Source of the DNA: Chthonomonadia bacterium
Lineage (GTDB): Bacteria > Armatimonadota > HRBIN16
Direction: 5' to 3'
DNA length: 64,000 nucleotides
Assembly: GCA_013314755.1 (NCBI GenBank)
Contig: JABUFA010000001.1
Coordinates: forward strand, 23,594-87,593
The notes under the pieces were generated by a model that worked only from the letters and a program-made list of their open reading frames with translations, had not been told where the DNA came from and made no database searches. Below are positions 1,256 to 62,770 of this stretch, piece by piece (position 1 is the stretch's first letter; each line of letters starts with the position of its first letter). Made by a program: the position numbers and the translations under genes.

Positions 1256-1257
1256 GT

Positions 1258-1818
1258 ATGCTGGAACATCAGATGAGCGATGAAAGGCTGAAAGCGGTCA
1301 AAGCCGTTCTGCTGGATGTGGACGGCGTGCTGACCGACGGCGGAATCTATTACGACCCCACCGGGCGCGAAATCAAGCGGTTCCACGTCGCCGACGGACT
1401 CGGCATCGAACTGCTCAGGCACGCCGGCGTTCGAGTGGCTATTCTTTCCGGGCGGGCGTCCGAGGCGCTCACCCGCAGGGCGGCGGAGCTGAAGATTCTG
1501 GAGTGCTACCAGGGAGTGCGCGACAAGAAGGCACAGATAGAACGCCTGCGCCAGCAGTGGCAGATGAAGAAGGAGGAACTGCTCTACGTCGGCGATGACC
1601 TGAACGACCTGCCCGCGTTCGAGGCGGTTGGCGTGCGCGTGGCGGTGGCGAACGCCGCGCCGGAGCTGAAAGCACAGGCAGATTTCATCACCCGCGCTCC
1701 CGGAGGCAACGGCGCAGTGCGCGAGGTGTGCGAGTGGATTTTGAAGGCGCAGGGGGCATGGGAGCAGGCGATAGAGGCATACCTGCGGGGCAGGCGGGAG
1801 GCTGGCAGCGAGGCGTGA
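1258..1818 (+). CDS. kdsC: 3-deoxy-D-manno-octulosonate 8-phosphate phosphatase (HAD superfamily)
   Basis: 186 aa with HAD motif LLDVDGVLTDG and a C-terminal GDDLNDL motif. Starts 3 nt after the kdsD stop. Confidence 0.8.
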   Translation: MLEHQMSDERLKAVKAVLLDVDGVLTDGGIYYDPTGREIKRFHVADGLGIELLRHAGVRVAILSGRASEALTRRAAELKILECYQGVRDKKAQIERLRQQWQMKKEELLYVGDDLNDLPAFEAVGVRVAVANAAPELKAQADFITRAPGGNGAVREVCEWILKAQGAWEQAIEAYLRGRREAGSEA

Positions 1819-2546
1819 GCGGGCTGGTCATCCTGCACACCAACGATATGCACAACCGCCTGCGCGAGGAGAGGGCGGAGCGCCTGCGCCAGATTGTAGA
1901 GGAAGAACGCGCTCGATACCCGTGCCTCCTGCTGGACGCCGGCGATGCGGTCGGAGCAGGAAACGTTACCTTCAACCCCGCCGGCGAGCCTATCCTGGAC
2001 CTCATGTCCGACATCGGCTATACCGCGATGACCGTCGGCAACCGCGAGTTTCACCTGACCGAGGTGGGCTTCCATACGAAGCTGAACCGGGCACGCTTTC
2101 CGGTGCTCTGCGCCAACGTACGCCCGCGTAACGGAGCACGCCTGCCCGTCCAGCCCTATCTGCTTCTGGAGGTCGGTGAACGGCGTGTGGGCATAATCGG
2201 CTTGACCGTGCCCATGATTACCGAGCGGATGCTGAGTCGACACGTCAGCGCGTACGTCTTTGACGACCCCGTTCAGCGCGGATGCGAGCTGGCGGAGGAA
2301 CTGCGCCCACAGGTTGACCTTCTAATAGCCCTCACGCATATCGGGCTGAAACGGGACATGGAGCTGGCGCAGGCAACCGACCGAATAGACCTGATTATCG
2401 GGGGGCACAGCCACACCCTGCTGGAGGAACCCCTGCGCGAAGGTAACGCCGTCATCGTGCAGACAGGTGCACATGCGCGTTACGTAGGGCGTGTGCTGGT
2501 GGCTCCTGACAGCATAGAAGGTAGCCTGCTACCCCTTACCGTCTGA
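1816..2546 (+). CDS. Calcineurin-like metallophosphoesterase / 5'-nucleotidase-like protein
   Basis: Motifs LHTNDMHN, DAGD and GNREF typical of UshA-type metallophosphatases. The ORF-track start (1728) overlaps kdsC, so the start is probably the GTG near 1816. Start uncertain. Confidence 0.55.
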
Positions 2547-3959
2547 AGCCAGAACGCCCTTCCATATCCGGGCGGAACGGGCTGGAAGGCTAATCCTCTC
2601 TGTTCGCCCACCACTCACGGCACAGATGGCTCCCGTCCCGACCTCCTCCAGCCTGCTGACGCGGGGCACGGCGCGTTTGCGAAGCGGAATCTCTCCCTGC
2701 CACCCCTTTGCGCCGCCGTTGACGGTCACCATCCACACCTCTTCGCCCTGCCAGCGGGCGTATGCCAGCACATCTCCTTCCGCGTACAGCACATCGGTCT
2801 CGCCCGTCCGCCAGGCAGGGCTGGAATGGCGCAGGGCAATCATGGCGCGTACATGCCGGTACAGACGGCGGTTCCAGCGTCGCCTATCCCACTCGAAACA
2901 TGCCCGGCAATGAGGGTCGGCTTCGCCCGTCATGCCAATCTCGTCGCCGTAGTAGATGCACGGTGCGCCCGGCAGGGTGAACAACAGGGTATATCCCAGC
3001 ATCGCTCGGCGCACATCGCCCTCGCACACGGTCAGCCAGCGTGGGGTATCGTGGCTCCCCAGCAGGTTGATCTGCGCGTAAACCGCCTCGCGCGGATAGC
3101 GGCGCAGGAGGCGCATCAGTCCTGTTGCAAAGGCGGGGGCATCGGCAGAACCCTTCGCTACGAAGTCCATCAGCAGGTCGCGCAGAGGGTAGTTCATCAC
3201 GCCGTCAAACTGGTCGCCTTTTAGCCACCGCCTCGCGTCCTTCCAGATTTCGCCCACAATGTACGCCTCGGGGTTGGCGCTCTTGACCGTCTGCCGAAAC
3301 GCCTGCCAGAAGGTATCATCGTCGATTTCATTGGGCACGTCCAGCCGCCAACCATCCGCGCCCTGCTCTATCCAGTAGCGTGCCACGCTCAGCAGAAACT
3401 GCCGCACCTGTGGGTTGTCGGTGTTGAGCTTGGGCAGGGAACGAATGCCCCACCAGCAGGCATAGTTTGGACGCCTGCGCCCATCGTAGGGGTGGATGGG
3501 AAACTTGCGGATATGAAACCATCCGACGTACGGCGAGTGCGAACCGTTCTCCACAACGTCATGGAAGGGATAAAACCCTCGCCCACAGTGATTGAACACC
3601 CCGTCCAGAATGAAGCGTATCCCGTAAGCGTGCAGGTTGTTGCGCAGATTAACGAAGTCCTCCATCGTGCCCAACTTCGGGTCGATGCGGAAGTAGTCGT
3701 AGGTGTTATAGCGATGGTTGGATGGAGATTGAAAGATAGGGTTCAGGTAGATGGCGGTAATTCCCAGTTCCCGAAGGTAAGACAGATTCTGGCGAATGCC
3801 CTCCAGGTCGCCGCCCATGAAGTTATGTGGAGTAGGCGGAGTTCCCCAGGGCTGAACATTGGCGGGGTCGTTGGAGGGGGCGCCGTTGGCGAAACGGTCA
3901 GGAAAAATCTGATAGAAGACGGCGTGCTTCACCCAGTTGGGCGTGCAAAAGTCATTCAC
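2529..3959 (-). CDS. GH13 alpha-amylase family enzyme (neopullulanase/cyclomaltodextrinase-like)
   Basis: N-terminus WVKHAVFYQIFPDRF, then GGDL.GI...L.YL..LGITAIYLNPIF, DGVFNH and GWRLDV catalytic regions. Probable GTG start at 3959 preceded by GGAGG. Overlaps the HEPN ORF by 8 nt. Confidence 0.8.
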   Translation of the reverse strand: MNDFCTPNWVKHAVFYQIFPDRFANGAPSNDPANVQPWGTPPTPHNFMGGDLEGIRQNLSYLRELGITAIYLNPIFQSPSNHRYNTYDYFRIDPKLGTMEDFVNLRNNLHAYGIRFILDGVFNHCGRGFYPFHDVVENGSHSPYVGWFHIRKFPIHPYDGRRRPNYACWWGIRSLPKLNTDNPQVRQFLLSVARYWIEQGADGWRLDVPNEIDDDTFWQAFRQTVKSANPEAYIVGEIWKDARRWLKGDQFDGVMNYPLRDLLMDFVAKGSADAPAFATGLMRLLRRYPREAVYAQINLLGSHDTPRWLTVCEGDVRRAMLGYTLLFTLPGAPCIYYGDEIGMTGEADPHCRACFEWDRRRWNRRLYRHVRAMIALRHSSPAWRTGETDVLYAEGDVLAYARWQGEEVWMVTVNGGAKGWQGEIPLRKRAVPRVSRLEEVGTGAICAVSGGRTERISLPARSARIWKGVLASDGKG

Positions 3960-4880: not shown

Positions 4881-6383
4881 ATGAAGTGGAAAGACGCACG
4901 GATGGCGGGGGTGCTGTTACACCCCACCTCTCTGCCTGGCGCATTTGGCATCGGGGAACTGGGCGGGGAAGCATACCGCTTCGTGGACTGGCTGGTGCGG
5001 GCAGGACAGAAGGTCTGGCAGGTGCTGCCGCTGGGACCGACTGGCTTTGCAGACTCGCCCTATTCCGCCTTCTCCGCCTTTGCGGGCAATCCCCTGCTCA
5101 TCAGTCTTCAGCGACTGCAGGACGAAGGCTTGCTGACGTGGGACGATTTTGTTGATTACCCATTCCTTCCCGAAGACAGGGTAGATTACGGCGCGGTTAT
5201 CCCTGCGAAGATGGGCGTCCTGCGCCTCGCCTACGAGCGGTGGAAGTCGCAGGGCGACGAAGAGGCGAAACGAGGGCTGGAACACTTCCGAGAACAACAT
5301 ACCTTCTGGCTGGAAGACTTCGCGCTGTTCATGGCGCTGAAGGAGGCATACGGGGGCAGAGCGTGGACCGAATGGGATAGAGACCTTGCCCACCGCAATC
5401 CTGATGCCCTGAACCGCGCCCGAAGGGAGCTGGCGGACGAGGTGCAGTTTCATCGCTTTGTGCAGTACTGCTTTGCCAGGCAGTGGTCCGACCTCAAACG
5501 CTACGCCAACGCGCAGGGTGTGTTGATTATGGGCGATATGCCCATCTTCGTGGCGCACGATAGCACGGATGTGTGGGCGAAACCGGAGATGTTCTATCTG
5601 GATGAGGACGGCAATCCGACCTTCGTTGCCGGCGTCCCGCCAGACTACTTCAGCCCCACCGGTCAGCGATGGGGAAATCCCGTGTATCGGTGGGAGGTGA
5701 TGAAGGAGCAGGGTTACCGGTGGTGGATAGAGCGTTTTCGGTGGACTCTGCAGATGATGGACATCGTGCGCGTCGACCATTTTCGTGGCTTCTCTGCCTA
5801 CTGGCAGGTCCCCGCCTCCGAGCCAACCGCAGTGAAGGGAAGGTGGGTGAAGGTGCCGGGCAGGGAGCTGTTCCGCACTCTGCAAAGGGAACTTGGCGAA
5901 CTGCCCATCGTGGCAGAGGACCTGGGCACCATCACGCCCGACGTCACGCGCCTGCGCAAGGGGCTGGGCTTTCCGGGTATGCGGGTTCTGCAATTCGCCT
6001 TTGACGGCGACCCGAATAACCTCTACCTGCCCTACAACTACGAGCCGGACACTGTGGTGTACACCGGCACCCACGACAACGACACGCTGGTCGGCTGGTT
6101 CAACGGGTTGAGCGAGGAGGAGAAGCGGCGTGTCTACGACTACGTCGGGCGTGAGGACATCAGCGTTCACTGGGAGATGATTCGGCTGGCTTACGCATCG
6201 GTGGCGCGATTAGCCATCGTGCCCCTGCAGGATTGGCTGGGACTGGGCAGTGGGGCACGCATGAACCAGCCGGGGCGCGAAGCGGGCAACTGGCAGTGGC
6301 GCTGTCGAAGAGAACATCTGAATGAAGGACTGGCGCAAGCCATCGCGAAAATGTGTGCTGTTTATGGACGAGACAGGTATTGA
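4881..6383 (+). CDS. malQ: 4-alpha-glucanotransferase (amylomaltase, GH77)
   Basis: 500 aa. N-terminus AGVLLHPTSLPG...GIGELG and internal GH77 motifs (DMPIFVAHDSTDVW, VYTGTHDNDT) match MalQ. Confidence 0.9.
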   Translation: MKWKDARMAGVLLHPTSLPGAFGIGELGGEAYRFVDWLVRAGQKVWQVLPLGPTGFADSPYSAFSAFAGNPLLISLQRLQDEGLLTWDDFVDYPFLPEDRVDYGAVIPAKMGVLRLAYERWKSQGDEEAKRGLEHFREQHTFWLEDFALFMALKEAYGGRAWTEWDRDLAHRNPDALNRARRELADEVQFHRFVQYCFARQWSDLKRYANAQGVLIMGDMPIFVAHDSTDVWAKPEMFYLDEDGNPTFVAGVPPDYFSPTGQRWGNPVYRWEVMKEQGYRWWIERFRWTLQMMDIVRVDHFRGFSAYWQVPASEPTAVKGRWVKVPGRELFRTLQRELGELPIVAEDLGTITPDVTRLRKGLGFPGMRVLQFAFDGDPNNLYLPYNYEPDTVVYTGTHDNDTLVGWFNGLSEEEKRRVYDYVGREDISVHWEMIRLAYASVARLAIVPLQDWLGLGSGARMNQPGREAGNWQWRCRREHLNEGLAQAIAKMCAVYGRDRY

Positions 6384-6461
6384 CACATCTGTATCAAGTG
6401 TGCTAACGTGTAGACAGGGTGATGTCACCCTGAAAAGGACGGAAAGGGGGTAATACTTTCG

Positions 6462-6743: not shown

Positions 6744-7562
6744 ATGAAACGACATGGCTTTACGCTCATTGAGCTGCTTGTTGTTATCGCGATTATCGCG
6801 ATACTGGCAGCCATCCTGTTCCCGGTGTTTGCGCAGGCGAGAGCCTCTGCGCGCAAGTCCGCCTGCCTGTCCAACATGAAGCAGCTGACGCTGGGCATGT
6901 TGCAGTACCTGCAGGATTACGATGAGAGGTTCCCCGGGTGGAACTGGGAGTTCTTCTGCAACGGTGGCAACAACGGTTTGCCCCGCGACTCGGCTGCGTT
7001 CTGGACGATGGCAATCTACCCCTACGTCAAGAACGACGGCGTGTATCAGTGCCAGGATGACCCCCTTCAGTGGAACGATGTATGGGCGGGCTGCAGTGAC
7101 GATGGTGGACGTAACGACCGCTTCGCCCCCATCAACCCGAACACCGGACAGCCGTGCGAGTTCTGGGATGCATGCAACCCCAAATACGTCTCGTACGGTC
7201 TTAACGAGACACTGACCGGAAGCTACCCAACCAACAAGCTGGGCGGCATCTCCACACCCGCCAACTGGGCGATGTTCTTTGATAGCAGCGCGCAGCTGGT
7301 AGACATCTATGTGTGGCAGCGACCCGATTCAGGCAACTTCAACTGGATAGCTTCACGCACGGCGTTCGCGACAGAGGGTTGCTGTAAAATCTGGGAGTGC
7401 TGTCGCACTGCCGATTCCTGGATCCAGCAGTACGGCAAGGGAGAATTGGACAAACTACCGCGCCACGCCGGTGGTGAGAACGTGAGCTTCGTGGACGGTC
7501 ACGCCAAGTTCTACCGCTGGACCGAACTGACCTGGGGCAACATGACCACAGGCGGTCAGTAG
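6744..7562 (+). CDS. Prepilin-type N-terminal cleavage/methylation domain protein, H-X9-DG (DUF1559) family
   Basis: N-terminus [33 protein letters not shown] is a class III signal (G-FTLIE). C-terminal H-x9-DG motif ([13 protein letters not shown]). Confidence 0.8.
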
Positions 7563-7633: not shown

Positions 7634-9925
7634 ATGTCTTTCCTCAAATCTGGTATACTTATTCCCGCACTGTTAGTACTGCTACCCAATCTTCTGACAC
7701 AGGGAGGCAACATGCCTGATCCAAGCGAAGAGGCATTATCCTATCTGCAGCGCTGTAATGTGGTGTGGGATACACCCTCAAAAGACAGCTCCGGCTCCAT
7801 GCCTCTCGGCAACGGCGATATCGGGGTAAATATGTGGGTGGAACCGAACGGCGACCTCGTGTTCTACCTGAGCAAGACCGATGCCTGGAGCGAAAACAAC
7901 CGCCTGCTGAAACTGGGCAGGGTACGGGTGTCGTTAGAACCTTCTCTCCTGAGTGGGGGCGACTTCTTCCGTCAGGAACTGCGCCTGAGTGGTGGCGAAG
8001 TCATCGTACAGGCGGGTAGCCGCTCAAGCCCGACAAATCTGCGGGTGTGGGTGGACGCCAACCGCCCGGTAGTATGGGTGGACGTGGATAGCCCCCAGCC
8101 CGTGCAGATACGGGTGCAGCTGGAGGTCTGGAGGCAGAGCGACCGCACGCTCGAGGGCAAAGAGCTGTTCAGCGCGTACGGCATGATGGGTTCGCCCCAT
8201 CCCGTAGTGGAACATGCCGATACGGTGCTGGATGGGCAGAAGGACTGCATTATCTGGTATCACCGCAACCCGACCTCTATCTATGAGCTCACCCTGCGCC
8301 ACCAGGGGCTGGAGAGCCTGATTGGCAAACTACCTGACCCGCTACTGCATCGCACCTTCGGGGGGCTGATTCGCGGCAGAGACCTGGTGCGTACGGACAA
8401 ATACACCCTCGCCAGCGTCTCACCCGCAAAACAGTTTTCGGTCGCGGTGCATGTGTTGACTGCTCAGACCGAAACGGCAGAGGAGTGGGTGAGCCGTATC
8501 CGGGCGCAGGCGAAGCGGGTGGAGGCAGTGGGACGCACGCAGGCACGCGCCGCCCATCAGCGATGGTGGCTTAACTTCTGGCGACGCAGCTGGATTGTGG
8601 TCAGCGGTAGTCCGGAAGCGGAAGTGGTTACCCAGGGTTACGCGCTCCAGCGTTTCATCAACGCCTGTGCCGGGCGAGGAGCCTACCCGATTAAGTTCAA
8701 CGGCTCCATCTTCACGGTAGACTCGCGTGAGCCAGATGAGCACTTCGACGCCGACTATCGCCGCTGGGGCGGGGAGTACTGGTTCCAGAACACACGCCTG
8801 CCCTACTGGACAATGCTCCCCACAGGCGATTATGACATGATGCGCCCGCTGTTTGAGATGTATCTGAAGGCTCTGCCACTGGCGAAGGCGCGTACGCAAA
8901 TCTATTTCGGGCATGAAGGGGCATACTTCCCTGAAACCATCACCTCCTGGGGCACATACGCGAACTCGAACTACGGGTGGGACCGGCAGGGTAAGCCTGT
9001 TTCGTATATTGATAACCCGTATATCCGCTACTACTACTCGTGCAACCTGGAACTGCTGGCGATGGCGCTGGAACACTTCTTCCACACAGGTGACAGGCGG
9101 TTCCTGAGCGAGACACTTTTGCCCTTTGCGGACGCATTCATCACCTTTTACGACCGCCATTTCGGGCGCGACGGCGACGGGAAACTTCTGCTGAAGCCCT
9201 CGCAGTCTCTAGAGACCTATCCTGAGACGGTGAACCCTCTGCCGGATATTGCCGGTTTGCGCTGGGTTCTGCAGGAGCTGCTTCGAGTGCCTCTCAGCAG
9301 GCAGGATTTACACCGGCGCAACCTGTGGCGGCGACTGCTGGAACAGCTTCCTCCCCTGCCCATGAAGACGGAAGGGGGACAGACTTTCCTTCTGCCCGCT
9401 CAGGAAATCCTCGCCCCGCCGATTAACTCCGAAGACCCCGAACTGTACGCCGTGTTCCCCTATCGGCTGTATGGAGTGGGCAAGCCCGACCTGCAGGTGG
9501 CGCGCAATACCTACGCCCGACGACCATACAAAGGCAACGAAGGCTGGCGGCAGGACCCCATCTGGGCGGCTCTGCTGGGGCTGGCAGATGAGGCGAAGAC
9601 GATGGTTGCTCAGCGGTTCGCCACCAAACACGCGGGCAGTCGGTTCCCCGCCTTCTGGGGACCCAATTACGACTGGATACCCGACCAGGACCACGGTTGC
9701 GGGGGAATGATTGCCCTGCAGGCGATGCTGATGCAGACCGATGGTGAGAAGATACTGCTCTTCCCCGCCTGGCACAAAGAGTGGGACGTCTCCTTCCGCC
9801 TGCACGCCCCGGGCAAAACGGTGGTGGAAGCCGTCTGGCGCAACGGCAGGGTGCACTCCCTGAAGGTAACGCCCAGCTGGAGGGAGAAAGATGTGATGAT
9901 TATAGGCGCAGACAAAAGCGAGTAG
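7634..9925 (+). CDS. Secreted large protein, putative (alpha/alpha)6-barrel-type glycoside hydrolase (DUF5703-like)
   Basis: About 760 aa. Signal peptide MSFLKSGILIPALLVLLPNLL. The family assignment is from memory of similar PVC/Bacteroidetes proteins and is not verified. Confidence 0.4.
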   Translation: MSFLKSGILIPALLVLLPNLLTQGGNMPDPSEEALSYLQRCNVVWDTPSKDSSGSMPLGNGDIGVNMWVEPNGDLVFYLSKTDAWSENNRLLKLGRVRVSLEPSLLSGGDFFRQELRLSGGEVIVQAGSRSSPTNLRVWVDANRPVVWVDVDSPQPVQIRVQLEVWRQSDRTLEGKELFSAYGMMGSPHPVVEHADTVLDGQKDCIIWYHRNPTSIYELTLRHQGLESLIGKLPDPLLHRTFGGLIRGRDLVRTDKYTLASVSPAKQFSVAVHVLTAQTETAEEWVSRIRAQAKRVEAVGRTQARAAHQRWWLNFWRRSWIVVSGSPEAEVVTQGYALQRFINACAGRGAYPIKFNGSIFTVDSREPDEHFDADYRRWGGEYWFQNTRLPYWTMLPTGDYDMMRPLFEMYLKALPLAKARTQIYFGHEGAYFPETITSWGTYANSNYGWDRQGKPVSYIDNPYIRYYYSCNLELLAMALEHFFHTGDRRFLSETLLPFADAFITFYDRHFGRDGDGKLLLKPSQSLETYPETVNPLPDIAGLRWVLQELLRVPLSRQDLHRRNLWRRLLEQLPPLPMKTEGGQTFLLPAQEILAPPINSEDPELYAVFPYRLYGVGKPDLQVARNTYARRPYKGNEGWRQDPIWAALLGLADEAKTMVAQRFATKHAGSRFPAFWGPNYDWIPDQDHGCGGMIALQAMLMQTDGEKILLFPAWHKEWDVSFRLHAPGKTVVEAVWRNGRVHSLKVTPSWREKDVMIIGADKSE

Positions 9926-26629: not shown

Positions 26630-26830
26630 GGTTTTTGAACGACGGCTCGGCGGGAGCCTCGCCCTTCAGGGATGAAGAACCCCTCTCCCGACCTCTCCCC
26701 GACGCGGGGAGAGGTGAATCTCCCCTTCCCTCGCAGGGAATGGGCTGGGGGATAGGTCCCGTCCTTGAACCCCTCTCCCGACCTCTCCCCGACGCGGGGA
26801 GAGGTGATGCGCCCTGCGAGTTAGACTTCC
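26630..26830. repeat. Mosaic REP-like hairpin repeat cluster (two identical 41-bp units at 26677-26717 and 26767-26807, each containing palindrome CCTCTCCCCgacgcGGGGAGAGG)
   Basis: Direct read. Same units recur at 49.9-50.05 kb and 56.37-56.47 kb. Also contains CCTTCCCTcgcAGGGAAtGG, which is shared with 52.05 kb. Confidence 0.85.
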
Positions 26831-35163: not shown

Positions 35164-35957
35164 TCAGTCTTTCCACAGCAGGGCGCCGCGATAGCCACCC
35201 TGGCAGTATACCGGATACGATTCATCCGCCCAGAAGTTGCGATCGGACTTGGCGTGGCCGTCGGCGAACACGAAGTTAATCGCGCCCACAGGCTTTTCGG
35301 CAGGTCCCGTCACGTGGTGCACCGGGCGCCCGTACAGCCATCCACTGTTTGGCAACGAAACGCACCAGAATGGACCCTCGCCATTGACCGTGATGCCGTA
35401 GAACGATGCCCACATTTGGGTGACGGTGTCCGCAAAAATAGCGACGGACGCAGGTGAGCCGATTGCCCCAAGCGTGCGCGGCGTGCACTGGTTGCCGATG
35501 ATGTACTCATTGAAGCCGTAGGTGATGCAGTAGTCCGGCAGCTGTCCGTTAGCCTCCACGTAGTTTGCCATGTAGTATCGGCAGTTGCCAGCCATCGGGC
35601 ACCAGGGACACGCACTCTCGGTTACTCCCGCGCCGATGCTGGGACACTGGAACAGCCCCTTGCTCTTCACGTAGGGCATCAGCAGTGCCGTCCACAGCAC
35701 GTTGGGCTGGTCGGGATTACTGCACCAGGGCGCGCCTCCCGGACCGCCGGGCCAGGGGTTCCACACGAAGGTCTCGTCGTAGTCCTGGATGTACATGTTG
35801 TGCGCCAGACCTATCTGCTTGGTGTTGGACAGACAACCGGTCATGCGCGCCTTCTCCCGTGCCTGAGCGAACACGGGGAACAGAATCGCCGCCAGGATAG
35901 CAATTATCGCTATCACGACGAGCAACTCGATAAGCGTAAAGCCGTTGCGTTTCATGA
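35164..35957 (-). CDS. Prepilin-type N-terminal cleavage/methylation domain protein, H-X9-DG (DUF1559) family
   Basis: Internal start [37 protein letters not shown] with GGAGGG RBS, and a C-terminal [10 protein letters not shown]9-DG motif. The ORF-track N-terminal extension (TTG at 36096) is unlikely. Start coordinate approximate. Confidence 0.75.
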
Positions 35958-35968
35958 TGTTACCCTCC

Positions 35969-37087
35969 TCATGATTTTGTATGCGTCTCACCCGCGGCAT
36001 GGTCACATGAATCGCGTACGACCAGTTCCACGGGCAGATACTCCACACTACTCTGCTCTTCAGTGGATGAGCGCATGGTCGAAAGCAATCGTTCAATCGC
36101 CCGCTCTCCCATGCGGTACAGCGGTTGGCGCACCACCGTTAGCGGTGGCTGTAGATGCGCTGCCGAAGGCGGGTCATCAAAGCTCACGATGCTCACATCC
36201 TGGGGCACACGCAGACGCAGGGTGCGTATCAGCCCCAGCACATCCAGGGTCAGGTAGTAGCCCGCGCAAAAGATGGCGGTAATCGGCTCGCGGCGCAACA
36301 GCAGGGAGGTTAGATGCCGGCGTGACGCCTCGTCCATTTGCCAGTTTGAGCGTGCCCGAACAACCCAGTCGTCCTCCACCGGGATACCATGCTCGTCCAT
36401 CGCCTGCAGATAGCCGTGCAGACGGTCACGGCAGTTGGTGGCAGAGTCTTTGCCGTTCACATAGGCGATGCGCCGATGTCCCAGCCGGAAAAGGTAGCTG
36501 ACCGCCATCCGCGCCCCGCCGATATTGTCGCTGTCCACACAGGCGAAAGGCGCTTCCTTCCACGACGCGCCCAGCACCACAAAAGGAACGCCCCTGGCAA
36601 ACAGACGATACAGCGTATCATACCCCTGCTCGTCCGGGATCAGAAAGAGAAAGCCCGCGTCGGGATATGCCTGAACCAGATGCTCGTAGCCGTCATAGTG
36701 GGCGGCTTCCACTACCAGCGCGAAGCCGTTCGCGCTTGCCCGGTCACGAAATGCATGGAAGGGCCAGCGCAGGTAGGTATCTTCCTCTAGATGGTCAGCA
36801 AATGGAGGCACCATCACCACCGTCGGGCGAGCGACCGTATGTGTCGACGGCTTTCTGTGCTGTACATAAGTGCCCGACCCCACCCGCCGTACCAGCACGC
36901 CTGCCCGCACCAGCTCCTGAATGGCGCGGTTGACCGTCATCTGGCTCACGCCGAACTGGCGGGCGATGGCGCGCTCGCTAGGGATGCGTTCTCCTTCGCG
37001 CACCTTGCGCTGGGCGATGAGCTGTTCGATATGTCTCTGGATGCGCTGATAGCGCGGTTCGGATACGGGCATGAGAACCCTCGCCAT
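35969..37087 (-). CDS. AraR-like hybrid transcriptional regulator (GntR-type wHTH N-terminus + LacI/PBP-type sugar-binding C-terminus)
   Basis: N-terminal [12 protein letters not shown]...[28 protein letters not shown] is a GntR HTH. The remaining ~290 aa resembles a LacI-family periplasmic-binding-fold effector domain. Divergent from the GH116 gene. Confidence 0.65.
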
Positions 37088-46847: not shown

Positions 46848-47648
46848 TTACATATCAGGACTCAGGAGGTGGGTAGAGACGTAATCCTGAGCCTCTGCTT
46901 CAGAGTTCGCCATGTACCAGTTATCCCAGGGGTTGACCAATAACGGATAGTTATCCGTTAGGTTCCACATCAGGCGAGGGCGTACGGTCTGGCTGGACCT
47001 CAATGCTTTTGCGTGTCCATCTACGAATGTCCAGTTGATGGTCCCGCCGTGTGTTCGCAGAGGATACCAGGTGTATCCGATGTACCACAGCCCAGCATCG
47101 AAGAGCTCGAAGGGCAGCTCTACGATGATTATCTTAGACGCAGGCTCTTGGATACCGGCAAGGGCGAAGGCGTTTTGTCCACTACCGTATGTCCAGCCGA
47201 ACACGTACGCGTTCATCGCGTAGCCTTTGGGGCGGGTGACTGTGCCCCAACCTCCGGTACGTCCAACAGCCTCGTCTGGACGGGAAGGACAGACAAAGAT
47301 CTGGTGGTTTTTCACATAGGGCATCAACAGGTCGTACCAAATGATGAGGTCGACGCCCCAGTCACTTCGTCGTCCAACCCAGCGGTCATAGTTGGGCATA
47401 GGCAACATTTCGTCGTAGTCCTGCGTGTACATCACCATGCCAAGCCCAAGCTGCTTCATGTTCGAGAGACAAGCGGACTTTCTGGCTTGTTCGCGTGCAC
47501 GTGCGAACACCGGGAACAGAATCGCTGCCAGTATCGCGATTATCGCGATAACCACCAGCAATTCGATCAGGGTAAAAGCTGTGGCCGTGCGTCTCACTGG
47601 TTTTTTCCCTCCTTCGTTCGTCCGAGTTTTTGAGCGTTTCTGCCACAC
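46848..47648 (-). CDS. Prepilin-type N-terminal cleavage/methylation domain protein, H-X9-DG (DUF1559) family
   Basis: [35 protein letters not shown]-terminus and C-terminal FVDGHAKAL. Exact start uncertain. Confidence 0.7.
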
Positions 47649-49689: not shown

Positions 49690-50095
49690 GACATCTCCCG
49701 CGAGGAGAGGGAAAAACAGATCGGCGGAAGCCTTGCCCTCCAAGGGATGCTGTAGGGGCAACCCTCTGTGGTTGCCCTCTCCAATGCCGAACAGCCCCAC
49801 CTGAACTCACCGAAGGCGGAAAGGGACTGTCCCCCTGCTTGCGAGGGGACAACACGGGGGCTTACCATACCGCAAGAAAGCCCCTCCTAACCTCCCCGCA
49901 GGCAGGGAGGAACCCCTCTCCCGCCCTCTCCCCGACGCGGGGAGAGGAGTGTCGAAAGAAGCCCTCACCCTGACCCTCTCCCACGAGGAGAGGGCAACAC
50001 GGGGTAAAACCCCTCTCCCAGCCTCTCCCCGACGCGGGGAGAGGTGATGCGCCCCTGAACGGAAAGATTTTTCCGAGAAATCTCTCCCGAACACC
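49690..50095. repeat. Dense array of REP-like hairpin repeats (at least 5 distinct palindromic units)
   Basis: Contains GGGCAACCctctgtGGTTGCCC, GTCCCCctgcttgcgaGGGGAC, CCTCCCcgcaggcaGGGAGG, CCCTCTCCCacgagGAGAGGG and two CCTCTCCCCgacgcGGGGAGAGG units. A 95-bp composite (49950-50045) is repeated inverted at 56372-56465. Confidence 0.85.
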
Positions 50096-50211: not shown

Positions 50212-51111
50212 GTGTGGCATTGCCTCTCTGTCAGCGCAGATTCCATATCTCTTGCAGTCTCTTCCACGAAGGACGGGGCAAGAGCAGCCCCTGTCACTCC
50301 CTTCGTTGACCATAACCCCTCTCTTGTCTGGTCGGTTGTTTCGGCTGAAATCCTTGCTGAGGGCAACGTGCAGATAGCGTATGAGTATGGGTATGGGTTT
50401 GACGGCGGTCGTCGCTGGCGGAAGGACTACCTGAATGGGGTGTGGACTCGGTATCCGTGCGGTGTGGCGTGCGGTGCTGGGGAGCTGGTGGAGCAGCAGA
50501 AGCCGCTGGAGGGAGGCAGCTGGACAACGAGTGCGCTGTATTTGCAGGGCATTTCGCTGGTTCGGCGAAACAGTGAGTGGCATCACTTTGACCCGTTCGG
50601 CACAGCTGGAGTGATAACCAACGGGAGTGGTCAGGTGGTGAGCAACAACCTGTATGACCTGTTTGGTGTCATCAGATATGAGCAGGGCAGCGCGCAGACG
50701 CCGTGGAGGTGGATATGGTTTCGTACCAGTGAGGAAGACCTGCTGACAGTAAGTAGAGTTCTCACTCAGCCGGAACGTGACCTTGCTCTTTCGAGGCCGG
50801 CGCTCGTACCGCTAGGAGCGGGTGGAATAATAGGAGGGATGCTTTGCCTGCTGGCGTGTGCGTGGGTTGGGACTGGTGTTCATGAGTACTGGAACGACTG
50901 TCAACGCGAGTGCAGCAGCATGGATAATCCTGTTCGGTGCATGCCTAATTGCTTGATAACAAAAACATGCCAGAGTGCAATTGACACAGTGGCATGTATT
51001 GGATGCGGTGCATGTATCTGTTTGGTTCCTGTAGTCCGTCCTCTGTGTGTAAAGGTGGGCAGAGCAGCTATACGCATATGGGTGAAGCTTAGGGATATTC
51101 TACGAGAATGA
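50212..51111 (+). CDS. N-terminally truncated Rhs/YD-repeat C-terminal fragment with degenerate core end and Cys-rich hydrophobic tip
   Basis: Contains EWHHFDPFGTAGVITNGSGQVVSNNLYDLFGV, which matches the Rhs core signature YYHxDHLGSxxLLTDxxGxxVWxxxYDPFGE at most positions. A degraded RYYDP…DPIGLAGG-like segment follows (RVLTQPERDLALSRPALVPLGAGGI). The tip is C-rich with a TM stretch. There is no N-terminal Rhs body upstream. Lower GC than surroundings. Confidence 0.5.
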   Translation: MWHCLSVSADSISLAVSSTKDGARAAPVTPFVDHNPSLVWSVVSAEILAEGNVQIAYEYGYGFDGGRRWRKDYLNGVWTRYPCGVACGAGELVEQQKPLEGGSWTTSALYLQGISLVRRNSEWHHFDPFGTAGVITNGSGQVVSNNLYDLFGVIRYEQGSAQTPWRWIWFRTSEEDLLTVSRVLTQPERDLALSRPALVPLGAGGIIGGMLCLLACAWVGTGVHEYWNDCQRECSSMDNPVRCMPNCLITKTCQSAIDTVACIGCGACICLVPVVRPLCVKVGRAAIRIWVKLRDILRE

Positions 51112-51118: not shown

Positions 51119-51688
51119 TTGATGATGCTTCGCCTAGGATGGAGGGATACCTTTGCAGCAGTGTGCTTTGTGCTAATATACGTGTTGTCCCCGCCGTCCA
51201 AGCAGCTGTATTCTCGGCTCGGAACGTGGCCTGTATCGGAGTATTTCTCTATCGCCTTCGCTTTGGCGGTCGGGTTCACCTTTCGTTACTTCCACACGCG
51301 CTGGTCGCCAGAATGGCAAAGCAAAGTGGGAATGGGGCTATTAGTGCTCGCAGGCTTGGGAGCAGCAGGTGGCGACTTTGTCATCTCGGCTGCTATAGCT
51401 TGGTCGGCTTCGCTGGTCTTACTTTTTCGAGCAGTCTTTCGCGACGACAGCGAGGCGCGGTGGGCGGCGCCTATCATGTTTTTCGGTTTTTGGGCAGTGA
51501 TACTGTGTGCGATACTTGTGCACCTCGGTGGAATGAATGCGCTGGGCAGTGCGTTCGCAGTCGCATGGGCGCTGTTTATCATTGGTCTCTACATGCAAGC
51601 AGGTAATGGCGGGGACAAATTGCAAGAACCGCAGGGGCATCCTGTGCTGTTAGCGTTTCATGGGCTTCTGTTTATTGCCGCATTGTGA
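51119..51688 (+). CDS. Polytopic membrane protein (hypothetical; candidate immunity protein of the adjacent Rhs-like tip)
   Basis: 189 aa with 5-6 predicted TM helices. Starts 8 nt after the Rhs-fragment stop. No motif recognised. Confidence 0.45.
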   Translation: MMMLRLGWRDTFAAVCFVLIYVLSPPSKQLYSRLGTWPVSEYFSIAFALAVGFTFRYFHTRWSPEWQSKVGMGLLVLAGLGAAGGDFVISAAIAWSASLVLLFRAVFRDDSEARWAAPIMFFGFWAVILCAILVHLGGMNALGSAFAVAWALFIIGLYMQAGNGGDKLQEPQGHPVLLAFHGLLFIAAL

Positions 51689-52050: not shown

Positions 52051-52121
52051 CTCTCCTTCCCTCGCAGGGAAGGGGCTGGGGGTTAGGTTCAAACGGCTCG
52101 GCAGGAGCCTTGCCCTCCATC
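52051..52121. repeat. REP-like repeat copy (CCTTCCCTcgcAGGGAAGG + GGCTCGGCAGGAGCCTTGCCCTCC modules)
   Basis: Modules shared with 26.64-26.76 kb and 49.72 kb, in a different order. Confidence 0.8.
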
Positions 52122-52325
52122 AAATGTTGACAGTTACAACTCTTTCTTGCGATAATAAGACATCCTGATAGTATCGGAAAACCTGCCATGTCGCGCCGGG
52201 AGCGGATATATCGCTTCTTCCTTCACCATGGGTGCACACCGCAGCGATGGTGCTGACGACGAGTATACACAAACGACGCCCCGAACGGGGATGTGGAGGT
52301 TGCACAGGGTGTGGAGGTGATTGAG

Positions 52326-52904
52326 ATGCGAAGACCGCTGGCTTTTACACTGGTGGAGATACTGGTGGTGCTGGCGATTATCGCTGTGCTGGCGGCGCTA
52401 ACCATCAGCGGGGTGCAGTATGCCACTAAATACGCGCATCGTAGCACATGTATCAGCAATCTGCGCCAGCTGGTGACCGCGCTGAAGATGTATGACCAGA
52501 ACTGGGGAGGACCGCCGCCGTTATTGGTGGCGCACAACACTTGGGACAAGGTTCAGCCGGAGATTAAACCGGTCCTGCTCTGTCCTGCCGATTTCTCCAA
52601 GGGGGAGTTGCTTCCCGGCACTCTTAAACCCAAGCATGGTAAGTGGGTGCACAGTTCTTACAGTCCGTTCTACTTCATGAACGAGCTGGACTGTTCGGGC
52701 AGGCTTGACCAGCCCAGTTGGGCGCCGCTTCCTGATGCGGAGCGGATTTGGTTCATCTGTCGCTGGCATGCCCCTCATCCCTGGCTGTACGCCTATGCGG
52801 ACGGGCATGTGGAGTGGGCGAACGAGTTTTTACCCGGTCAGTCCGAGGGAAGAACTGCGCAGTATATCAGGCGACTAAAAGAGGTATGCCCGAACAAGCC
52901 ATGA
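52326..52904 (+). CDS. Short prepilin-type N-terminal cleavage/methylation domain protein
   Basis: MRRPLAFTLVEILVVLAIIAVLAAL class III signal and a degenerate C-terminal ADGHVEW motif. Confidence 0.6.
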   Translation: MRRPLAFTLVEILVVLAIIAVLAALTISGVQYATKYAHRSTCISNLRQLVTALKMYDQNWGGPPPLLVAHNTWDKVQPEIKPVLLCPADFSKGELLPGTLKPKHGKWVHSSYSPFYFMNELDCSGRLDQPSWAPLPDAERIWFICRWHAPHPWLYAYADGHVEWANEFLPGQSEGRTAQYIRRLKEVCPNKP

Positions 52905-52950
52905 TAGGTTCCTTTACCCCAACAATCTACCGGAGAAGGAGGGAGGCAAA

Positions 52951-53433
52951 ATGACTTCCAGAGTTCACAGACTGGTCGCAGTGTGGGTTGTGCTTGCCGG
53001 GCTGGCAGTCTGGGTTACTGCCACCAATGCCGGGCAGGGAGGAGGTCCAAGCTGGGGCACGTTGGCGCCGCAATATTTTGGCGACGCCTGTCAAAGCACC
53101 TGCCCACCCCCGGACGAGTGTTCGCTTCGCTGGATTAGAACGCGTTCTCAGAACTGTTGCATCTGGGACTGGGGATGCTGGCTCAATCCGTCGGAGCCGA
53201 ACTATCAAATCAAGCCATGCCAGCGGGATGAGTGGGAGTGCGTCTGGCTACCTGCTCCTCTTCCGCCTGCGCCGCCCAGCGGTGGGAGGTCATCAAACGC
53301 GAGCGTTGCCAACAACGATTCTGCGCTGGTTCCTCAGACACCCCCCGTTATTCGCTGCTGTCAGGAGGCTTACCAATGCCAGGAGGTAGACGGAAATCCC
53401 TGTTGCGACCCGGTAAATGCGCTGTGTCCATGA
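52951..53433 (+). CDS. Cysteine-rich small secreted protein (hypothetical)
   Basis: Signal peptide (cleavage near TATNA). The ~135-aa mature region has 14 Cys including CC and CxxC pairs. AGGAGGGAGG RBS. Ends at a hairpin/T-tract terminator. Confidence 0.5.
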   Translation: MTSRVHRLVAVWVVLAGLAVWVTATNAGQGGGPSWGTLAPQYFGDACQSTCPPPDECSLRWIRTRSQNCCIWDWGCWLNPSEPNYQIKPCQRDEWECVWLPAPLPPAPPSGGRSSNASVANNDSALVPQTPPVIRCCQEAYQCQEVDGNPCCDPVNALCP

Positions 53434-53486
53434 GAGCCATGGGTCGGTAAGTGAACCTAAGGTTTTCCATCTTTGCTGTTTGGGAA

Positions 53487-53527
53487 GGGCGGTTCTGTGC
53501 AAGAGCAGGACCGCCCCTCATTTTGTC
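53487..53527 (+). terminator. Bidirectional terminator hairpin between Cys-rich gene (+) and clpB (-)
   Basis: Stem GGGCGGTTCTG / CAGGACCGCCC (one mismatch) followed on the plus strand by CTCATTTTGTCT. Confidence 0.55.
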
Positions 53528-53616
53528 TAAACTCGAGTTCTCTCGTTTCTTCCCATATCTTTTTGAGCTTTTGCAGTATGGTTGCCCCCTGTGTTCCGAT
53601 GGCGGTTATCCGCGTG

Positions 53617-56223
53617 TTACCCCACCACTTCTGCCTGCACGCGCCTGGTGAACACCAGCTCACCGTTCTGGGCGTCCACCACGATATGGTCGCCCTCGGC
53701 GAACTCGCCAGCCAGCAGTTTGGTGGCGATGGTGTCCATCACGCGCTTCTGCAGGACGCGCTTCAGCGGTCGCGCACCATACACGGGGTCAAAGCCCTCC
53801 GCCGCCAGCACTTCCTTCGCTGCGTCGGTGACCGTCAGCTGGATGTGTTTGTCCTCCAGTCGCTTCTGCAGGAGGCGAATCTGGATGTCCACAATCTGCT
53901 TAATCTCGTTCACCGACAGCGGATTGAACACGATAATCTCGTCGATGCGGTTCAGGAACTCGGGGCGGAAGTGTGCCCGCACCGCGTCCATCACCTGCAT
54001 CCGCGCCTCCTGCATGTCCAGGAAGGCGTTCTCGGCAAGGAAGTGCGAACCGATGTTGGAGGTCATAATCAACACGGTGTTCTTGAAGTCCACCGTGCGA
54101 CCTTTGCCATCGGTCAGGCGACCGTCGTCCAGCACCTGCAGGAGCACGTTGAACACCTCCGGGTGCGCCTTTTCAATCTCGTCCAGCAGGATGACGCTGT
54201 ACGGACGCCGGCGCACCGCTTCGGTAAGCTGTCCGCCCTCTTCGTAGCCCACATAGCCGGGCGGGGCGCCAATCAGCCGTGCCACCGAGTGCTTCTCCAT
54301 GTACTCCGACATGTCGATGCGGATCATCGCCCGCTCGTCGTCGAACAGGAACTCGGCTAAGGCGCGCGCCAGCTCGGTCTTACCGACGCCGGTCGGTCCC
54401 AGGAACATGAACGAGCCGATGGGTCGGTTCGGGTCCTGCAAGCCGGCACGTGCCCGACGCACGGCGTTCGCCACCGCCTGAATCGCGTGGTCCTGTCCAA
54501 CCACGCGCTGGCGCAACCGCTCCTCCATGTGCAGGAGCTTCTGCATCTCGCCTTCCATCAGGCGCGAGACGGGAATGCCCGTCCACTTGCTGACCACCTC
54601 AGCGATGTCGTCGGCGTCGACCTCCTCTTTCAGCAGTTTCATGTGCTTCTGCAGTTCCTCCAGACGCTTCGTTTCGGCGTCCAGCTGCTTCTGTAGGGAG
54701 AGGATGACGCCGTAGCGCAGTTCCGCCGCTCTGGCGAGGTCGCCTTCACGCTCCGCAGCCTGCTCCTGCAGGCGCGCCTGCTCGATCTGCTCCTTGATAC
54801 TGCGGATGCGCGAGATAATCTCCTTCTCCTGCTGCCAGTGTGCCTTCAGGCGGTTGCTCTCCTCGCGCAGGTTGGCGATTTCCGCCTCCAGCTTCTCCAG
54901 TCGCTCCTTGCTGGCAGGGTCATCCTCCTTGCGCAGAGCCTCGCGCTCGATCTCCAACTGGCGGATGCGCCGCTCGATTTCGTCGATTTCGGTGGGCATG
55001 GAGTCGATCTCCATGCGCAGGCGCGATGCCGCCTCGTCAATCAGGTCAATCGCCTTGTCGGGTAGGAAGCGGTCGGCAATGTAACGATGCGAAAGAGTCG
55101 CCGCTGCCACGATGGCGCTGTCGGTGATGCGCACGCCGTGGTGCACCTCGTATCGCTCCTTCAGCCCGCGCAGGATGGCGATGGTGTCCTCCACATCAGG
55201 CTCACTGACCAGAATGGGCTGGAAGCGTCGCTCCAGCGCAGGGTCCTTCTCAATATGTTTGCGATACTCGTCCAGCGTGGTGGCGCCCACACAGCGCAGC
55301 TCACCTCGCGCCAGCATCGGCTTCAGCATGTTCGCGGCGTCAATGGCGCCTTCCGCTGCGCCCGCGCCCACCAGCGTGTGCAGTTCGTCAATGAAGACGA
55401 TAATCTGCCCCTCGGCGGACTGAATCTCGCGCAGAACCGCCTTCAGACGGTCTTCGAACTCGCCGCGATACTTGGTGCCTGCCACCAGCGCGCCCAGGTC
55501 CAGCTGCCAGACGCGCTTGTTCTTGAGACCTTCGGGCACGTCGCCCGCCACGATGCGCTGTGCCAGCCCTTCTACGATGGCGGTCTTGCCGACGCCCGGT
55601 TCGCCGATAAGCACCGGGTTGTTCTTGGTTCGCCGCGACAGCACCTGTATCACGCGCCGGATTTCGTCGTCGCGCCCGATGACGGGGTCCAGCTTGCCTT
55701 TGCGGGCGAGGTCGGTCAGGTCGCGTCCGTACCGCTCCAGCGCCTGGTATTTCTCTTCCGGGTTCTGGTCGGTGACGCGATGCCCGCCGCGAATCTCCAT
55801 CAACGCCTGATACAGGCTATCCGGCGTCACGCCTGCCTGTTTCAGCAGTCGACCCGCCGCGCCCTGCGTGTCCTGCACCAGCGCCATCAGCAGGTGCTCG
55901 GTGCTGACGTACTCGTCCTTCAGGCGCTCTGCCTCTTCAAAGGCTTTGTCCATCACCTGCTTGAAGCGCGGCGTGATGTACGACGCGACCGATGCGCCGT
56001 GTACCTGTGGCAGTTTCTTCAGTTCCGCCTCCACATACCGGCGCAGAACGGGCAGTTGCACGCCCAGCTTCTGCAGAACGGTCGGCACGATGCTTTCGGT
56101 CTGGTCAATGAGTGCCAGCAAGAGATGTTCGGCGTCGATGTTTTGATGATTCATGCGCTCAGCGATGCTTTGTGCGTTCTGCACCGCCTCCTGAGCGCGG
56201 ATGGTCAATTTATCCAATCGCAT
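53617..56223 (-). CDS. clpB: Chaperone ClpB (Hsp104-type AAA+ disaggregase)
   Basis: 868 aa with two AAA+ modules ([15 protein letters not shown]; [15 protein letters not shown]) and a long coiled-coil middle domain. Confidence 0.95.
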
Positions 56224-56371: not shown

Positions 56372-56465
56372 GAGCCTCACCTCTCCCCGCGTCGGGGAGA
56401 GGCCGGGAGAGGGGTTTTCCGTGTTTCCCTCTCCTTGTGGGAGAGGGTCAGGGTGAGGGCTTCTC
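56372..56465. repeat. REP-like composite repeat, inverted copy of 49950-50045
   Basis: The reverse complement matches GCCCTCACCCTGACCCTCTCCCAC(G/A)AGGAGAGGG…CCCCTCTCCC.GCCTCTCCCCGACGCGGGGAGAGGTGA with few substitutions. Confidence 0.85.
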
Positions 56466-61819: not shown

Positions 61820-62770
61820 GTGAAGCGCGGTTTTACGCTCATTGAGCTGCTGGTGGTCATCGCGATTATCGCGATACTGGCAGCGATTTTGTTCCCCGTG
61901 TTCGCTCAGGCACGGGAGAAAGCCCGCCAGGCTTCCTGCCTCACCCACTTCAAGCAGGTGGGCACGGGCATCATGATGTACCTGCAGGATTACGACGAAA
62001 CCTTCCCCCACAACCGGACCTGGGGACCAACCGGGGCGGTGGTGCTCAACTGGAAGTACCGCATCCTGCCGTACATCAAGAACATGCAGATTTATGAGTG
62101 CCCGAACGCTCGCCCGCAAATATCGCGTATGCTCGGTGACACCCAGAATGCCTATCGTGGCTCACAGGCAGACGAAACATGGGCGCACTGCCATCCAAGC
62201 TCGCCGTGGTACCGCAACGACCCGTTCTGCAGTATCCTTCAGAGGGAGAACATTTGGTTCCCACGAGGATACACGGTGAACGGCGCAGTATTCCAGACAG
62301 GCGTTCAGCTCGACGCCAACGGCAACGCCGTTGCGGCAACCTATCAGCGGCAACTGTCTGACCTGGATGTGCCTGCGGAGACCATCTGGCTGCAGGATGC
62401 CCGCAACTACGAGTCCGATACCGGTCCATGGGCGCTGGTGCGGTGCTGGTGCGCTCCACCAGGCGACCCGTTGGGCGGGGATGTGCCAACAAGTGAGTCG
62501 CCCTGTGGCATCGTGCGCCAGTACGGCTGGCTGGTTAACCATCTCAAAGGTACGCACTTCGTGTTCGCTGACGGACACGTCAAGTGGACACGCATCCCCT
62601 CGGCAATTGGAAGTAACCTCTGGAAATGGCACTGCTTCCAGCGGCCAGGTGAGAAAACCTTTGCCGGTGGCGACAACGTAAAAGACTTCGATTCGAGCTA
62701 CTGTCGCCAGCCCAATCCGGATACCTGCCGCACGGTCGCTGGCATTCTGGTGGCGGCAGAGTACAAGTAG
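61820..62770 (+). CDS. Prepilin-type N-terminal cleavage/methylation domain protein, H-X9-DG (DUF1559) family
   Basis: [37 protein letters not shown]-terminus, C-terminal FADGHVKW. Consensus promoter and AGGAGG RBS upstream. Confidence 0.8.

Follow-up and report, generated by a model that had tools for sequence, protein, structure and literature searches.

What a small exported protein with 14 cysteines does beside a pilin-like gene, and whether the two belong together, is the question raised by the locus described here. It lies in a stretch of 64,000 nucleotides from a Chthonomonadia bacterium (Armatimonadota; contig JABUFA010000001.1, positions 23,594 to 87,593), called the window below. 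An earlier note on this DNA had picked out the cysteine-rich gene for its placement after a Rhs-like cassette and a pilin-like gene. Its overall reading stood in one part and failed in two: the gene does encode a real, conserved, disulfide-rich small protein with a Sec-type leader, but the link to the Rhs-like genes fell away, and the pilin-like gene is not the incidental neighbour it was taken for. From the comparison with related loci the two genes appear to be the surviving core of a conserved Armatimonadota cassette. The function we favour for the cysteine-rich protein, at a probability of roughly one in three, is that of a Sec-exported, oxidatively folded partner or cargo of a dedicated pseudopilin. 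The two genes are:

52326..52904, plus strand: pilin-like gene, 192 amino acids (aa), with a prepilin-type class III leader, pseudopilin-like
52951..53433, plus strand: gene of the cysteine-rich exported protein, 160 aa, with 14 Cys and a Sec-type leader

Gene order in related loci and the probable deletion in the window

Gene order was surveyed with hidden Markov models (HMMs) in 39 loci (designated L below) and in the window. A pilin-like gene of the same short subfamily adjoins the cysteine-rich gene in all loci with enough flanking sequence except L031 and L032. It is situated directly 5' of the cysteine-rich gene in nearly all loci and 3' of it in L033. The recurring order of the cassette is a gene for a sigma factor of the extracytoplasmic function (ECF) type, a gene for a membrane-anchored thioredoxin-fold protein, and one to three tandem pairs of pilin-like and cysteine-rich genes; in one clade the sigma gene is found at the 3' end of the cassette.

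The pairs are duplicated as units, with two pairs in L006 and L020-23 and up to three in L036 and L039. Where one locus holds paralogous pairs, both genes of a pair match the same partner locus (L019 for pair L020a; L025, L010 and L028 for pair L020b), and for this reason we consider that the pairs were duplicated and evolved as units. Furthermore, the globular parts of the pilin-like and the cysteine-rich proteins co-diverge with r=0.90, a value reached by 0 of 5000 permutations. The co-divergence is compatible with a physical partnership and is no proof of one.

The sigma factors of L010 and L001 score 65.1 and 61.1 bits on TIGR02937 (cutoff 42.9), which places them among the ECF-type sigma-70 factors, and the cassette sigma factor also matches Pfam Sigma70_r2 and Sigma70_r4_2 above threshold. 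All matches of the second component to thioredoxin-fold families are below threshold (AhpC-TSA_2 21.1, AhpC-TSA 18.2 and Redoxin 16.5 bits, each in a different locus). In the more distant cassettes a CxxC (RCTDC, RCTEC or RCEGC) occupies the canonical thioredoxin site; in the clade of the window this CxxC is lacking and the protein has a C-terminal GGCxxGCGGCGG tail instead. The thioredoxin fold is thus a putative assignment, founded on three independent weak matches and on the CxxC of the distant cassettes.

A literature search on DUF1559, H-X9-DG and Armatimonadetes pilin plus cysteine-rich brought up no description of the cassette. The cysteine-rich family and the four-component cassette therefore appear to be undescribed. 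Taken singly, the components belong to familiar general classes: a pilin-like protein, an ECF sigma factor, a thioredoxin-fold protein and a secreted disulfide-rich protein. What is new is the near-obligate 1:1 pairing with a specialised pseudopilin-like protein, the co-duplication of the pairs and their linkage to the ECF sigma factor and the thioredoxin-fold protein.

In the window itself a tblastn search with the cassette sigma and thioredoxin-like genes found nothing full-length. The following features were identified 5' of the pilin-like gene:

52127..52156, plus strand: promoter-like site of the sigma-70 type, TTGACA-18 nt-GATAAT with a TG before the -10 element, 11 of 12 consensus positions
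52188..52256, plus strand: remnant of the ECF-type sigma-factor gene, 22 codons and a stop, reading MSRRERIYRFFLHHGCTPQRWC
52274..52324, plus strand: 3' remnant of the thioredoxin-fold gene, its last 16 codons and a stop, reading RRPERGCGGCTGCGGD

The promoter block at 52120-52185 and the 22 codons at 52188-52256 correspond by homology to the sigma gene of L004, the block to its promoter and the codons to its beginning. The block TGTTGACA...TCTTGCGATAATAA.ACATCC.GATA is common to the window promoter and the region 5' of the L004 sigma gene, and the MSRRERIYRFFLHHGCTPQRWC of the window corresponds to MSPRAQIRHFFTLQGCTAQEAEDLV at the N-terminus of the L004 sigma factor. A similar site, TTGACG-17-TACAAT, lies 5' of the sigma gene of L028. 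The site at 52127-52156 is probably the ancestral cassette promoter, of the sigmaA type.

Two contigs of a sibling strain from other samples, L041 and L042, match the window at 99.84% identity from 52274 on. Upstream of this point (1-734 in L041) they carry an intact thioredoxin-like gene of 200 aa, ending in RLIRRPERGCGGCTGCGGD and a stop, and before it the 3' end of the sigma gene. Because these contigs keep both, the window must lack about 1.1-1.2 kb at a junction that falls at 52273/52274. The window thus most probably represents a deletion derivative of the cassette in which nearly all of the sigma and thioredoxin-like genes are gone. The deletion is either a real strain variant or an assembly artefact. 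After it, the cassette promoter would read straight into the pilin-like and cysteine-rich genes. As a natural deletion variant it would allow strains with and without the regulator and the foldase to be compared.

The linkage with these two genes suggests a different function of the cassette. The cysteine-rich protein, the pilin-like protein, anchored in the inner membrane, and the thioredoxin-fold protein could form an extracytoplasmic redox or envelope sensor that controls the ECF-type sigma factor and takes the place of a classical anti-sigma factor. The sigma gene is linked in most loci, as the first or the last gene of the cassette; the gene directly after it, in the usual anti-sigma position, encodes a single-pass membrane protein; a CxxC thioredoxin-fold protein together with a cysteine-rich periplasmic protein suggests thiol chemistry as the input; and a conserved motif 5' of the thioredoxin-like gene could be the target promoter of the sigma factor itself. 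Nevertheless, we regard a role in envelope signalling as doubtful. The thioredoxin-fold protein has almost no cytoplasmic segment and so no anti-sigma domain, arrays of up to three tandem pairs sit poorly with a sensor, the pair is intact in the window after the loss of the sigma gene, and the conserved prepilin leader is left unexplained.

The motif concerned, AAATG[TC]C...[GC]AATATATA, was seen just 5' of the thioredoxin-like gene in both cassette arrangements (L001 80-125; L012 4785-4830; L016 2290-2335; L006 5375-5420; L004 2130-2200; L041 70-125). It may serve as an internal promoter, possibly one that the cassette sigma factor recognises, and is lost in the window.

Frameshifts were observed in the cassette genes of some relatives. 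The second cysteine-rich gene of L006 is split (7771-8224), as is the cysteine-rich gene of L003 at 1293-1707 (a 454-read assembly), and the sigma gene of L004 (1627-2105) is split into open reading frames (ORFs) of 98 and 68 aa. Either sequencing errors or decay of the cassette would account for them.

The cysteine-rich protein and the pilin-like protein

Within and around the cysteine-rich gene the following features can be distinguished:

aa 1-27 = 52951-53031, plus strand: signal peptide, as read from the sequence
aa 42-99, plus strand: beta-hairpin core with 8 Cys
aa 100-132 = 53248-53346, plus strand: variable Pro-rich loop
aa 133-160, plus strand: C-terminal segment with 6 Cys, ending in -CP
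52932..52946, plus strand: strong Shine-Dalgarno sequence GGAGAAGGAGGGAGG, 4 nt 5' of the ATG, read directly
53487..53516, plus strand: terminator-like hairpin (stem of 12 bp, 8 of them GC, and loop of 6 nt) with CTCATTTTGT after it

The earlier note had ascribed to this gene 14 cysteines, a signal peptide, a P-rich linker, a consensus ribosome-binding site and a terminator of its own, and all of these were found again. The 160-aa ORF contains its cysteines at positions 47, 51, 57, 69, 70, 76, 90, 97, 136, 137, 143, 151, 152 and 159, including three CC pairs and one C-x3-C. Twenty of its residues are prolines, and a Pro-rich PAPLPPAPPSGG is situated at residues 101-112. The N-terminus, MTSRVHRLVAVWVVLAGLAVWVTATNA/GQ (the slash marks the cleavage site here and below), has the basic n-region and hydrophobic core expected of a probable signal peptide; the core comprises 15 residues and is followed by T-N-A at -3 to -1, and the mature protein comprises 133 residues. 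The only His sits in the leader. The T-run after the hairpin is short and weak; the hairpin separates the gene from the convergent clpB (53617-56223, minus strand). In the source metagenome-assembled genome (MAG) the product is annotated as a hypothetical protein.

The cysteine-rich protein matches no family in Pfam or NCBIfam, no Pfam family is matched at E<=10 by any of 20 family members, and a sequence-profile search of the PDB with the family profile returned no chain at E<=10. A PADLOC scan of the protein gave nothing, and a scan of viral contigs revealed no relative. An exhaustive HMMER search of 1.84 billion representatives identified 14 family proteins at E<=1e-3, and a word-indexed search of 5.8 billion clusters identified 12. 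From 185,579 species genomes only 4 loci were recovered: two in Armatimonadota MAGs, one in a Fimbriimonadales MAG and one on a 1.1-kb contig assigned to Bathyarchaeota, probably through mis-binning. Metagenomes yielded 25 loci. The protein thus defines an unannotated family with no Pfam, NCBIfam or PDB relative, which is tiny and has almost all of its members in Armatimonadota.

Of the 20 family members aligned, 14 keep all 14 cysteines, and the others are mostly N-domain-only or partial sequences; the cysteine pattern is far beyond chance. The earlier note had named a lack of homologues with conserved cysteine spacing as speaking against its reading. Such homologues exist, and this objection therefore does not apply. 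The family signature is CCxWDWGCWxNPxEPxYQ together with a C-terminal CxExDGxPCC...CP. The Pro-rich stretch is an insertion of variable length, long in the window and nearly absent in the family member P0112 and in the L006 protein. Among the relatives there are true mini-proteins of about 55 mature residues with 10 Cys; judged by the names of their records, they stem in part from hot-spring-type MAGs. With five probable disulfides they are of possible interest as stable mini-protein scaffolds.

In the least saturated pair of loci, L001-L012, the ratio of nonsynonymous to synonymous substitution rates (dN/dS) is 0.25 for the cysteine-rich gene, which is for this reason considered to be under purifying selection, and 0.14 for the pilin-like gene. 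A further contig, L040, was compared with window positions 52299-56015. It is 100% identical over the pair and both intergenic regions (about 1.3 kb) and shows 75 substitutions, 72 of them in synonymous codons, in the adjoining 2.4 kb of clpB. The contig is either a recombination mosaic or chimeric. With no differences in the pair and 75 in clpB, the comparison is uninformative on selection.

The structure of the cysteine-rich protein was predicted with AlphaFold2 (AF2). The mean predicted local distance difference test score (pLDDT) was 40.6 with 3 sequences and 79.7 with 18 sequences, reaching 85-94 in the core and about 57 in the Pro-rich loop. Strands are predicted at residues 42-45, 57-72, 85-99, 133-137 and 151-155, and the WDWG motif is modelled as a short helix. 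Residues 2-28, the leader, are helical, and residues 30-38 at the mature N-terminus are of low confidence or disordered. The predicted fold has no match among the solved structures of the PDB, and no recognisable fold or family match to the knottin, hevein or defensin-like cystine mini-proteins was found. The high disulfide density is shared with the carbohydrate-binding mini-proteins of the hevein and knottin type. The CCIWDWGC of the window presumably resembles the CCSQWGWC of hevein, both being CC-x5-C with aromatic residues and Gly, and we keep this likeness as a lead.

In the family alignments the member P0117 lacks exactly C90 and C143, and P0123 exactly C137 and C159. Such paired losses suggest disulfides, which would tie the C-terminal segment covalently to the N-terminal hairpin. 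Instead of two domains joined by a linker, the protein would then form a single unit that carries a loop, and the model can be described as a predicted disulfide-stapled beta-sheet unit.

The same residues bear on a further explanation, namely that the protein is a periplasmic, metallothionein-like binder of Cu or Zn with reduced cysteines. The CC and CxxxC motifs and the 14 Cys among 133 mature residues would suit a metal binder. In addition, TlpA-like thioredoxin-fold proteins serve in copper-protein maturation. The paired losses (C90/C143 and C137/C159) fit disulfides and not metal ligands, however, and there are no conserved His or Met ligands, the single His being in the leader. The conserved Trp, Pro and Gly residues and the confident beta-sheet model indicate a structural disulfide scaffold, and the extracytoplasmic location likewise argues against metal binding, which we consider very improbable.

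That the neighbouring gene is pilin-like, as the earlier note had it, is confirmed by its scores of 26.2 bits on PF07963 (cutoff 21.2) and 20.6 bits on TIGR02532 (cutoff 16.3). The leader is MRRPLA/FTLVE, the sequence reading MRRPLA/FTLVEILVVLAIIAVLAAL. The protein shows the features of a class III signal peptide: the residue at -1, which may be Gly or Ala, is Ala, Phe stands at +1 and Glu at +5, and a hydrophobic helix comes after them. Among 16 orthologues L9 and E11 do not vary and T8 hardly does; C42 and C86 are likewise invariant, as are D159, G160 and V162, and C145 is nearly invariant. The full-length orthologues (41-77% identity), all from Armatimonadota and about 190 aa long, stand apart as a group of their own.

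Below this group the phmmer matches are generic PF07596 (DUF1559) proteins. The pilin-like protein itself does not reach the PF07596 threshold (13.4 vs 23.3 bits, over residues 37-65 only), and the best orthologue scores 20.9 bits. Because its score is below the curated threshold while its distant relatives carry PF07596, we regard the protein as a peripheral relative of DUF1559 and not as a member. There is no match to the NCBIfam H-X9-DG domain at E<=1, which we take to be TIGR04294, the H-X9-DG prepilin-associated C-terminal domain; the WHAPHPWLYAYADGHV of the pilin-like protein gives H-x7-DG or H-x10-DG, not H-x9-DG. The protein also falls short of the type II secretion system (T2SS) GspG equivalog TIGR01710, with 28.8 bits of the 88.85 required and a match confined to the N-terminal helix (residues 7-58). 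The RxTCxSNLRQL helix and the ...ADGHV motif are kept. With DUF1559 it has in common the class III leader, RxxCxSNLRQL on the N-terminal helix and the C-terminal ...ADGHV, but it is much shorter (about 190 aa) and belongs to the only branch with an obligate cysteine-rich neighbour. DUF1559/H-X9-DG proteins form paralogue families of function unknown that rank with the largest in Planctomycetes and relatives (PMC2754498, PMC10632474).

Further paralogues with a prepilin leader are present in the window:

6744-7562, plus strand: prepilin-leader paralogue
35164-36096, minus strand: prepilin-leader paralogue
46848-47648, minus strand: prepilin-leader paralogue, DUF1559 above threshold
61820-62770, plus strand: prepilin-leader paralogue, DUF1559 above threshold

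The two assigned to DUF1559 are those that were scanned with Pfam. None of the four has a cysteine-rich neighbour; the one at 46848-47648 adjoins GH42-like, SBP_bac_1 and LacI genes.

It was also observed that nearly all members of the cysteine-rich family end in -CP, that many of the paired pilin-like proteins end in or near -CP, and that the pilin-like protein has an odd number of cysteines (5 in the window). These ends and the odd count raise the question whether an intermolecular disulfide, as a candidate cause, lies behind them.

Partner of the pseudopilin or another function

Beyond gene structure and conservation, we infer every step of the mechanism by which the cysteine-rich protein would act as partner or cargo of the pseudopilin. 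Going by its leader, the protein would be exported by Sec and cut after TNA27. The 14 cysteines would form seven disulfides stapling the C-terminal segment to the long beta-hairpin and leaving the Pro-rich loop floppy, as the AF2 model and the paired losses suggest. In complete cassettes the thioredoxin-fold protein may assist this oxidative folding. Once folded, the protein would be the cognate partner of the adjacent pseudopilin, as its cargo or as a tip or cap subunit. The pseudopilin, by analogy with known systems, would be cleaved at A/FTLVE by a prepilin peptidase and would serve a type IV filament or T2SS-like machinery whose genes lie elsewhere, and through this use the mini-protein could be exposed on the cell surface or released there. 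A candidate for the ligand-binding face is the invariant Trp-rich loop CCxWDWGCWxNPxEPxYQ. Such a partnership would account for the conservation of the prepilin leader, the 1:1 pairing, the duplication of the pairs as units and the presence of a Sec leader.

Several points weigh against it. In none of the loci seen is the cassette flanked by genes for T2SS or type IV pilus machinery. Neighbouring genes that are duplicated as a tandem block and share their phylogeny are also expected to co-diverge, even if their products have no physical interaction. DUF1559-like proteins, with their dozens of paralogues in each genome, might not become part of a filament at all. A dedicated foldase seems dispensable, because the clade of the window lost the thioredoxin CxxC and the window lost the gene altogether. 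The role of the sigma factor is left unexplained, and the leader could be an uncleaved anchor.

A published parallel is offered by TcpB-TcpF of V. cholerae and CofB-CofJ of enterotoxigenic E. coli (ETEC), in which the minor pilin of a type IVb pilus has a cognate Sec-exported partner. The disordered mature N-terminus of a TcpF/CofJ-type protein hooks onto the pilin, and the filament exports the protein (PMC9565799, PMC10120004, PMC6048534). In the cassette, too, a pilin-family gene adjoins a gene for a Sec-exported non-pilin, the pairing is 1:1 and the mature N-terminus is of low confidence. In contrast to TcpF and CofJ, to which there is no relation in sequence or fold, the partner is here a disulfide-dense mini-protein of 55-135 residues, the pairs are in tandem and accompanied by sigma and thioredoxin-fold genes, and a surrounding pilus assembly operon is lacking.

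A broader proposal, possible but tentative, would make the cassette a carrier system of a new kind in which each short DUF1559-like pseudopilin is a dedicated adaptor that displays or exports one disulfide-knotted mini-protein of an unseen fold, with an ECF sigma factor and a periplasmic thiol-disulfide oxidoreductase of its own. If true, this would be the first functional handle on the DUF1559/H-X9-DG superfamily of Planctomycetes, Verrucomicrobia and Armatimonadota. For a DUF1559-type branch with a defined, small and expressible partner, the hypothesis of binding, secretion or display is directly testable.

The Verru_Chthon cassette (TIGR02596-TIGR02600) is similar in being lineage-specific and in containing prepilin-leader proteins, and there are N-terminal-only matches to its proteins D and C. 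The scores are far under the cutoffs (22.1 vs 70 and 13.6 vs 256.5 bits), however, and the gene content is different.

The small size and the disulfide density of the cysteine-rich protein could also point to a bacteriocin-like system. Here the protein would be an antibacterial mini-protein, the pilin-like protein its immunity protein, and the thioredoxin-fold protein a disulfide catalyst like BdbA/BdbB of sublancin. The protein is small, Sec-exported and very rich in disulfides, down to about 55 mature residues with 10 Cys, and the tandem cognate pairs resemble toxin/immunity arrays. Rhs-like or YD-like genes occur near the pair in the window, in L007 and in L014. The sublancin operon encodes thiol-disulfide oxidoreductases (PMC4336743, PMC6391423). 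As in that operon (sunA-sunT-bdbA-sunS-bdbB), a membrane-associated CxxC protein, here with a putative thioredoxin fold, and a small secreted disulfide product are encoded together in the cassette. The proteins are unrelated, however, and the cassette has no ABC (ATP-binding cassette) transporter, glycosyltransferase or immunity gene; moreover, the CxxC is lost in the clade of the window and the thioredoxin-fold gene is deleted in the window. Arms-race diversification is at odds with dN/dS values of 0.1-0.25 and with stable orthologous pair types. A dedicated transporter is lacking, and the loci have no conserved multi-pass protein of the immunity type. An immunity role would leave the conserved prepilin cleavage motif with E5 unexplained. 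Links in PADLOC or to viruses are absent, and the Rhs-like neighbour is without HMM confirmation. Given the purifying selection, and with neither immunity nor transporter genes present, we consider a bacteriocin unlikely.

Rhs-like genes and repeats near the pair

The remaining explanation is that of the earlier note, in which the cysteine-rich gene would be an accessory or effector gene of the adjacent Rhs-like islet. The ORF at 50212-51111, 1.2 kb 5' of the pilin-like gene, has by eye motifs like those at the end of an Rhs core (HHFDPFG...YDLFG). It gave no RHS match in Pfam or NCBIfam at E<=1 and no Rhs chain in the PDB at E<=1, however, and the canonical YxYDxxG[NR] motif is absent from the window. 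The upstream Rhs-like genes of the window are shared by none of the related loci, and the sibling strain and L004 have the sigma and thioredoxin-like genes 5' of the pair instead. The link was rejected for the lack of RHS matches, of the YD motif and of shared synteny, and an Rhs accessory function is the least probable of the explanations considered.

The C-terminus of the ORF at 50212-51111 is hydrophobic and Cys-rich, with a CIGCGACIC ferredoxin-like motif, and the ORF is followed by one for a 189-aa protein with multiple transmembrane segments (51119-51688). The two could be an orphan toxin-tip/immunity module, for which there was no HMM or PDB match. In L007, positions 1-3167 (minus strand) encode an RHS_repeat protein 3 kb from the pilin-like gene, and in L014 a YD-repeat-like ORF (6204-6443; DPLGRATEYQY) starts right after the cysteine-rich gene. 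The Rhs-like neighbours of the three loci (the window, L007 and L014) may be a coincidence.

Clusters of palindromes (CCTCTCCCCGACGCGGGGAGAGG) resembling repetitive extragenic palindromes (REP) were seen at 49694-50050 and 56374-56464. They are inverted and 96-97% complementary, and bracket a 6.4-kb block with the Rhs-like ORF, the multi-transmembrane ORF, the pilin-like/cysteine-rich pair and clpB. Such clusters could favour inversion or rearrangement. Another short repeat, AAACGGCTCGGCAGGAGCCTTGCCCTCCA, is located just 5' of the cassette promoter at 52091-52119. It recurs in the window at 49714-49742 and 26644-26667, and in the same relative position in L001 (2-29) and L016 (about 2205-2235).

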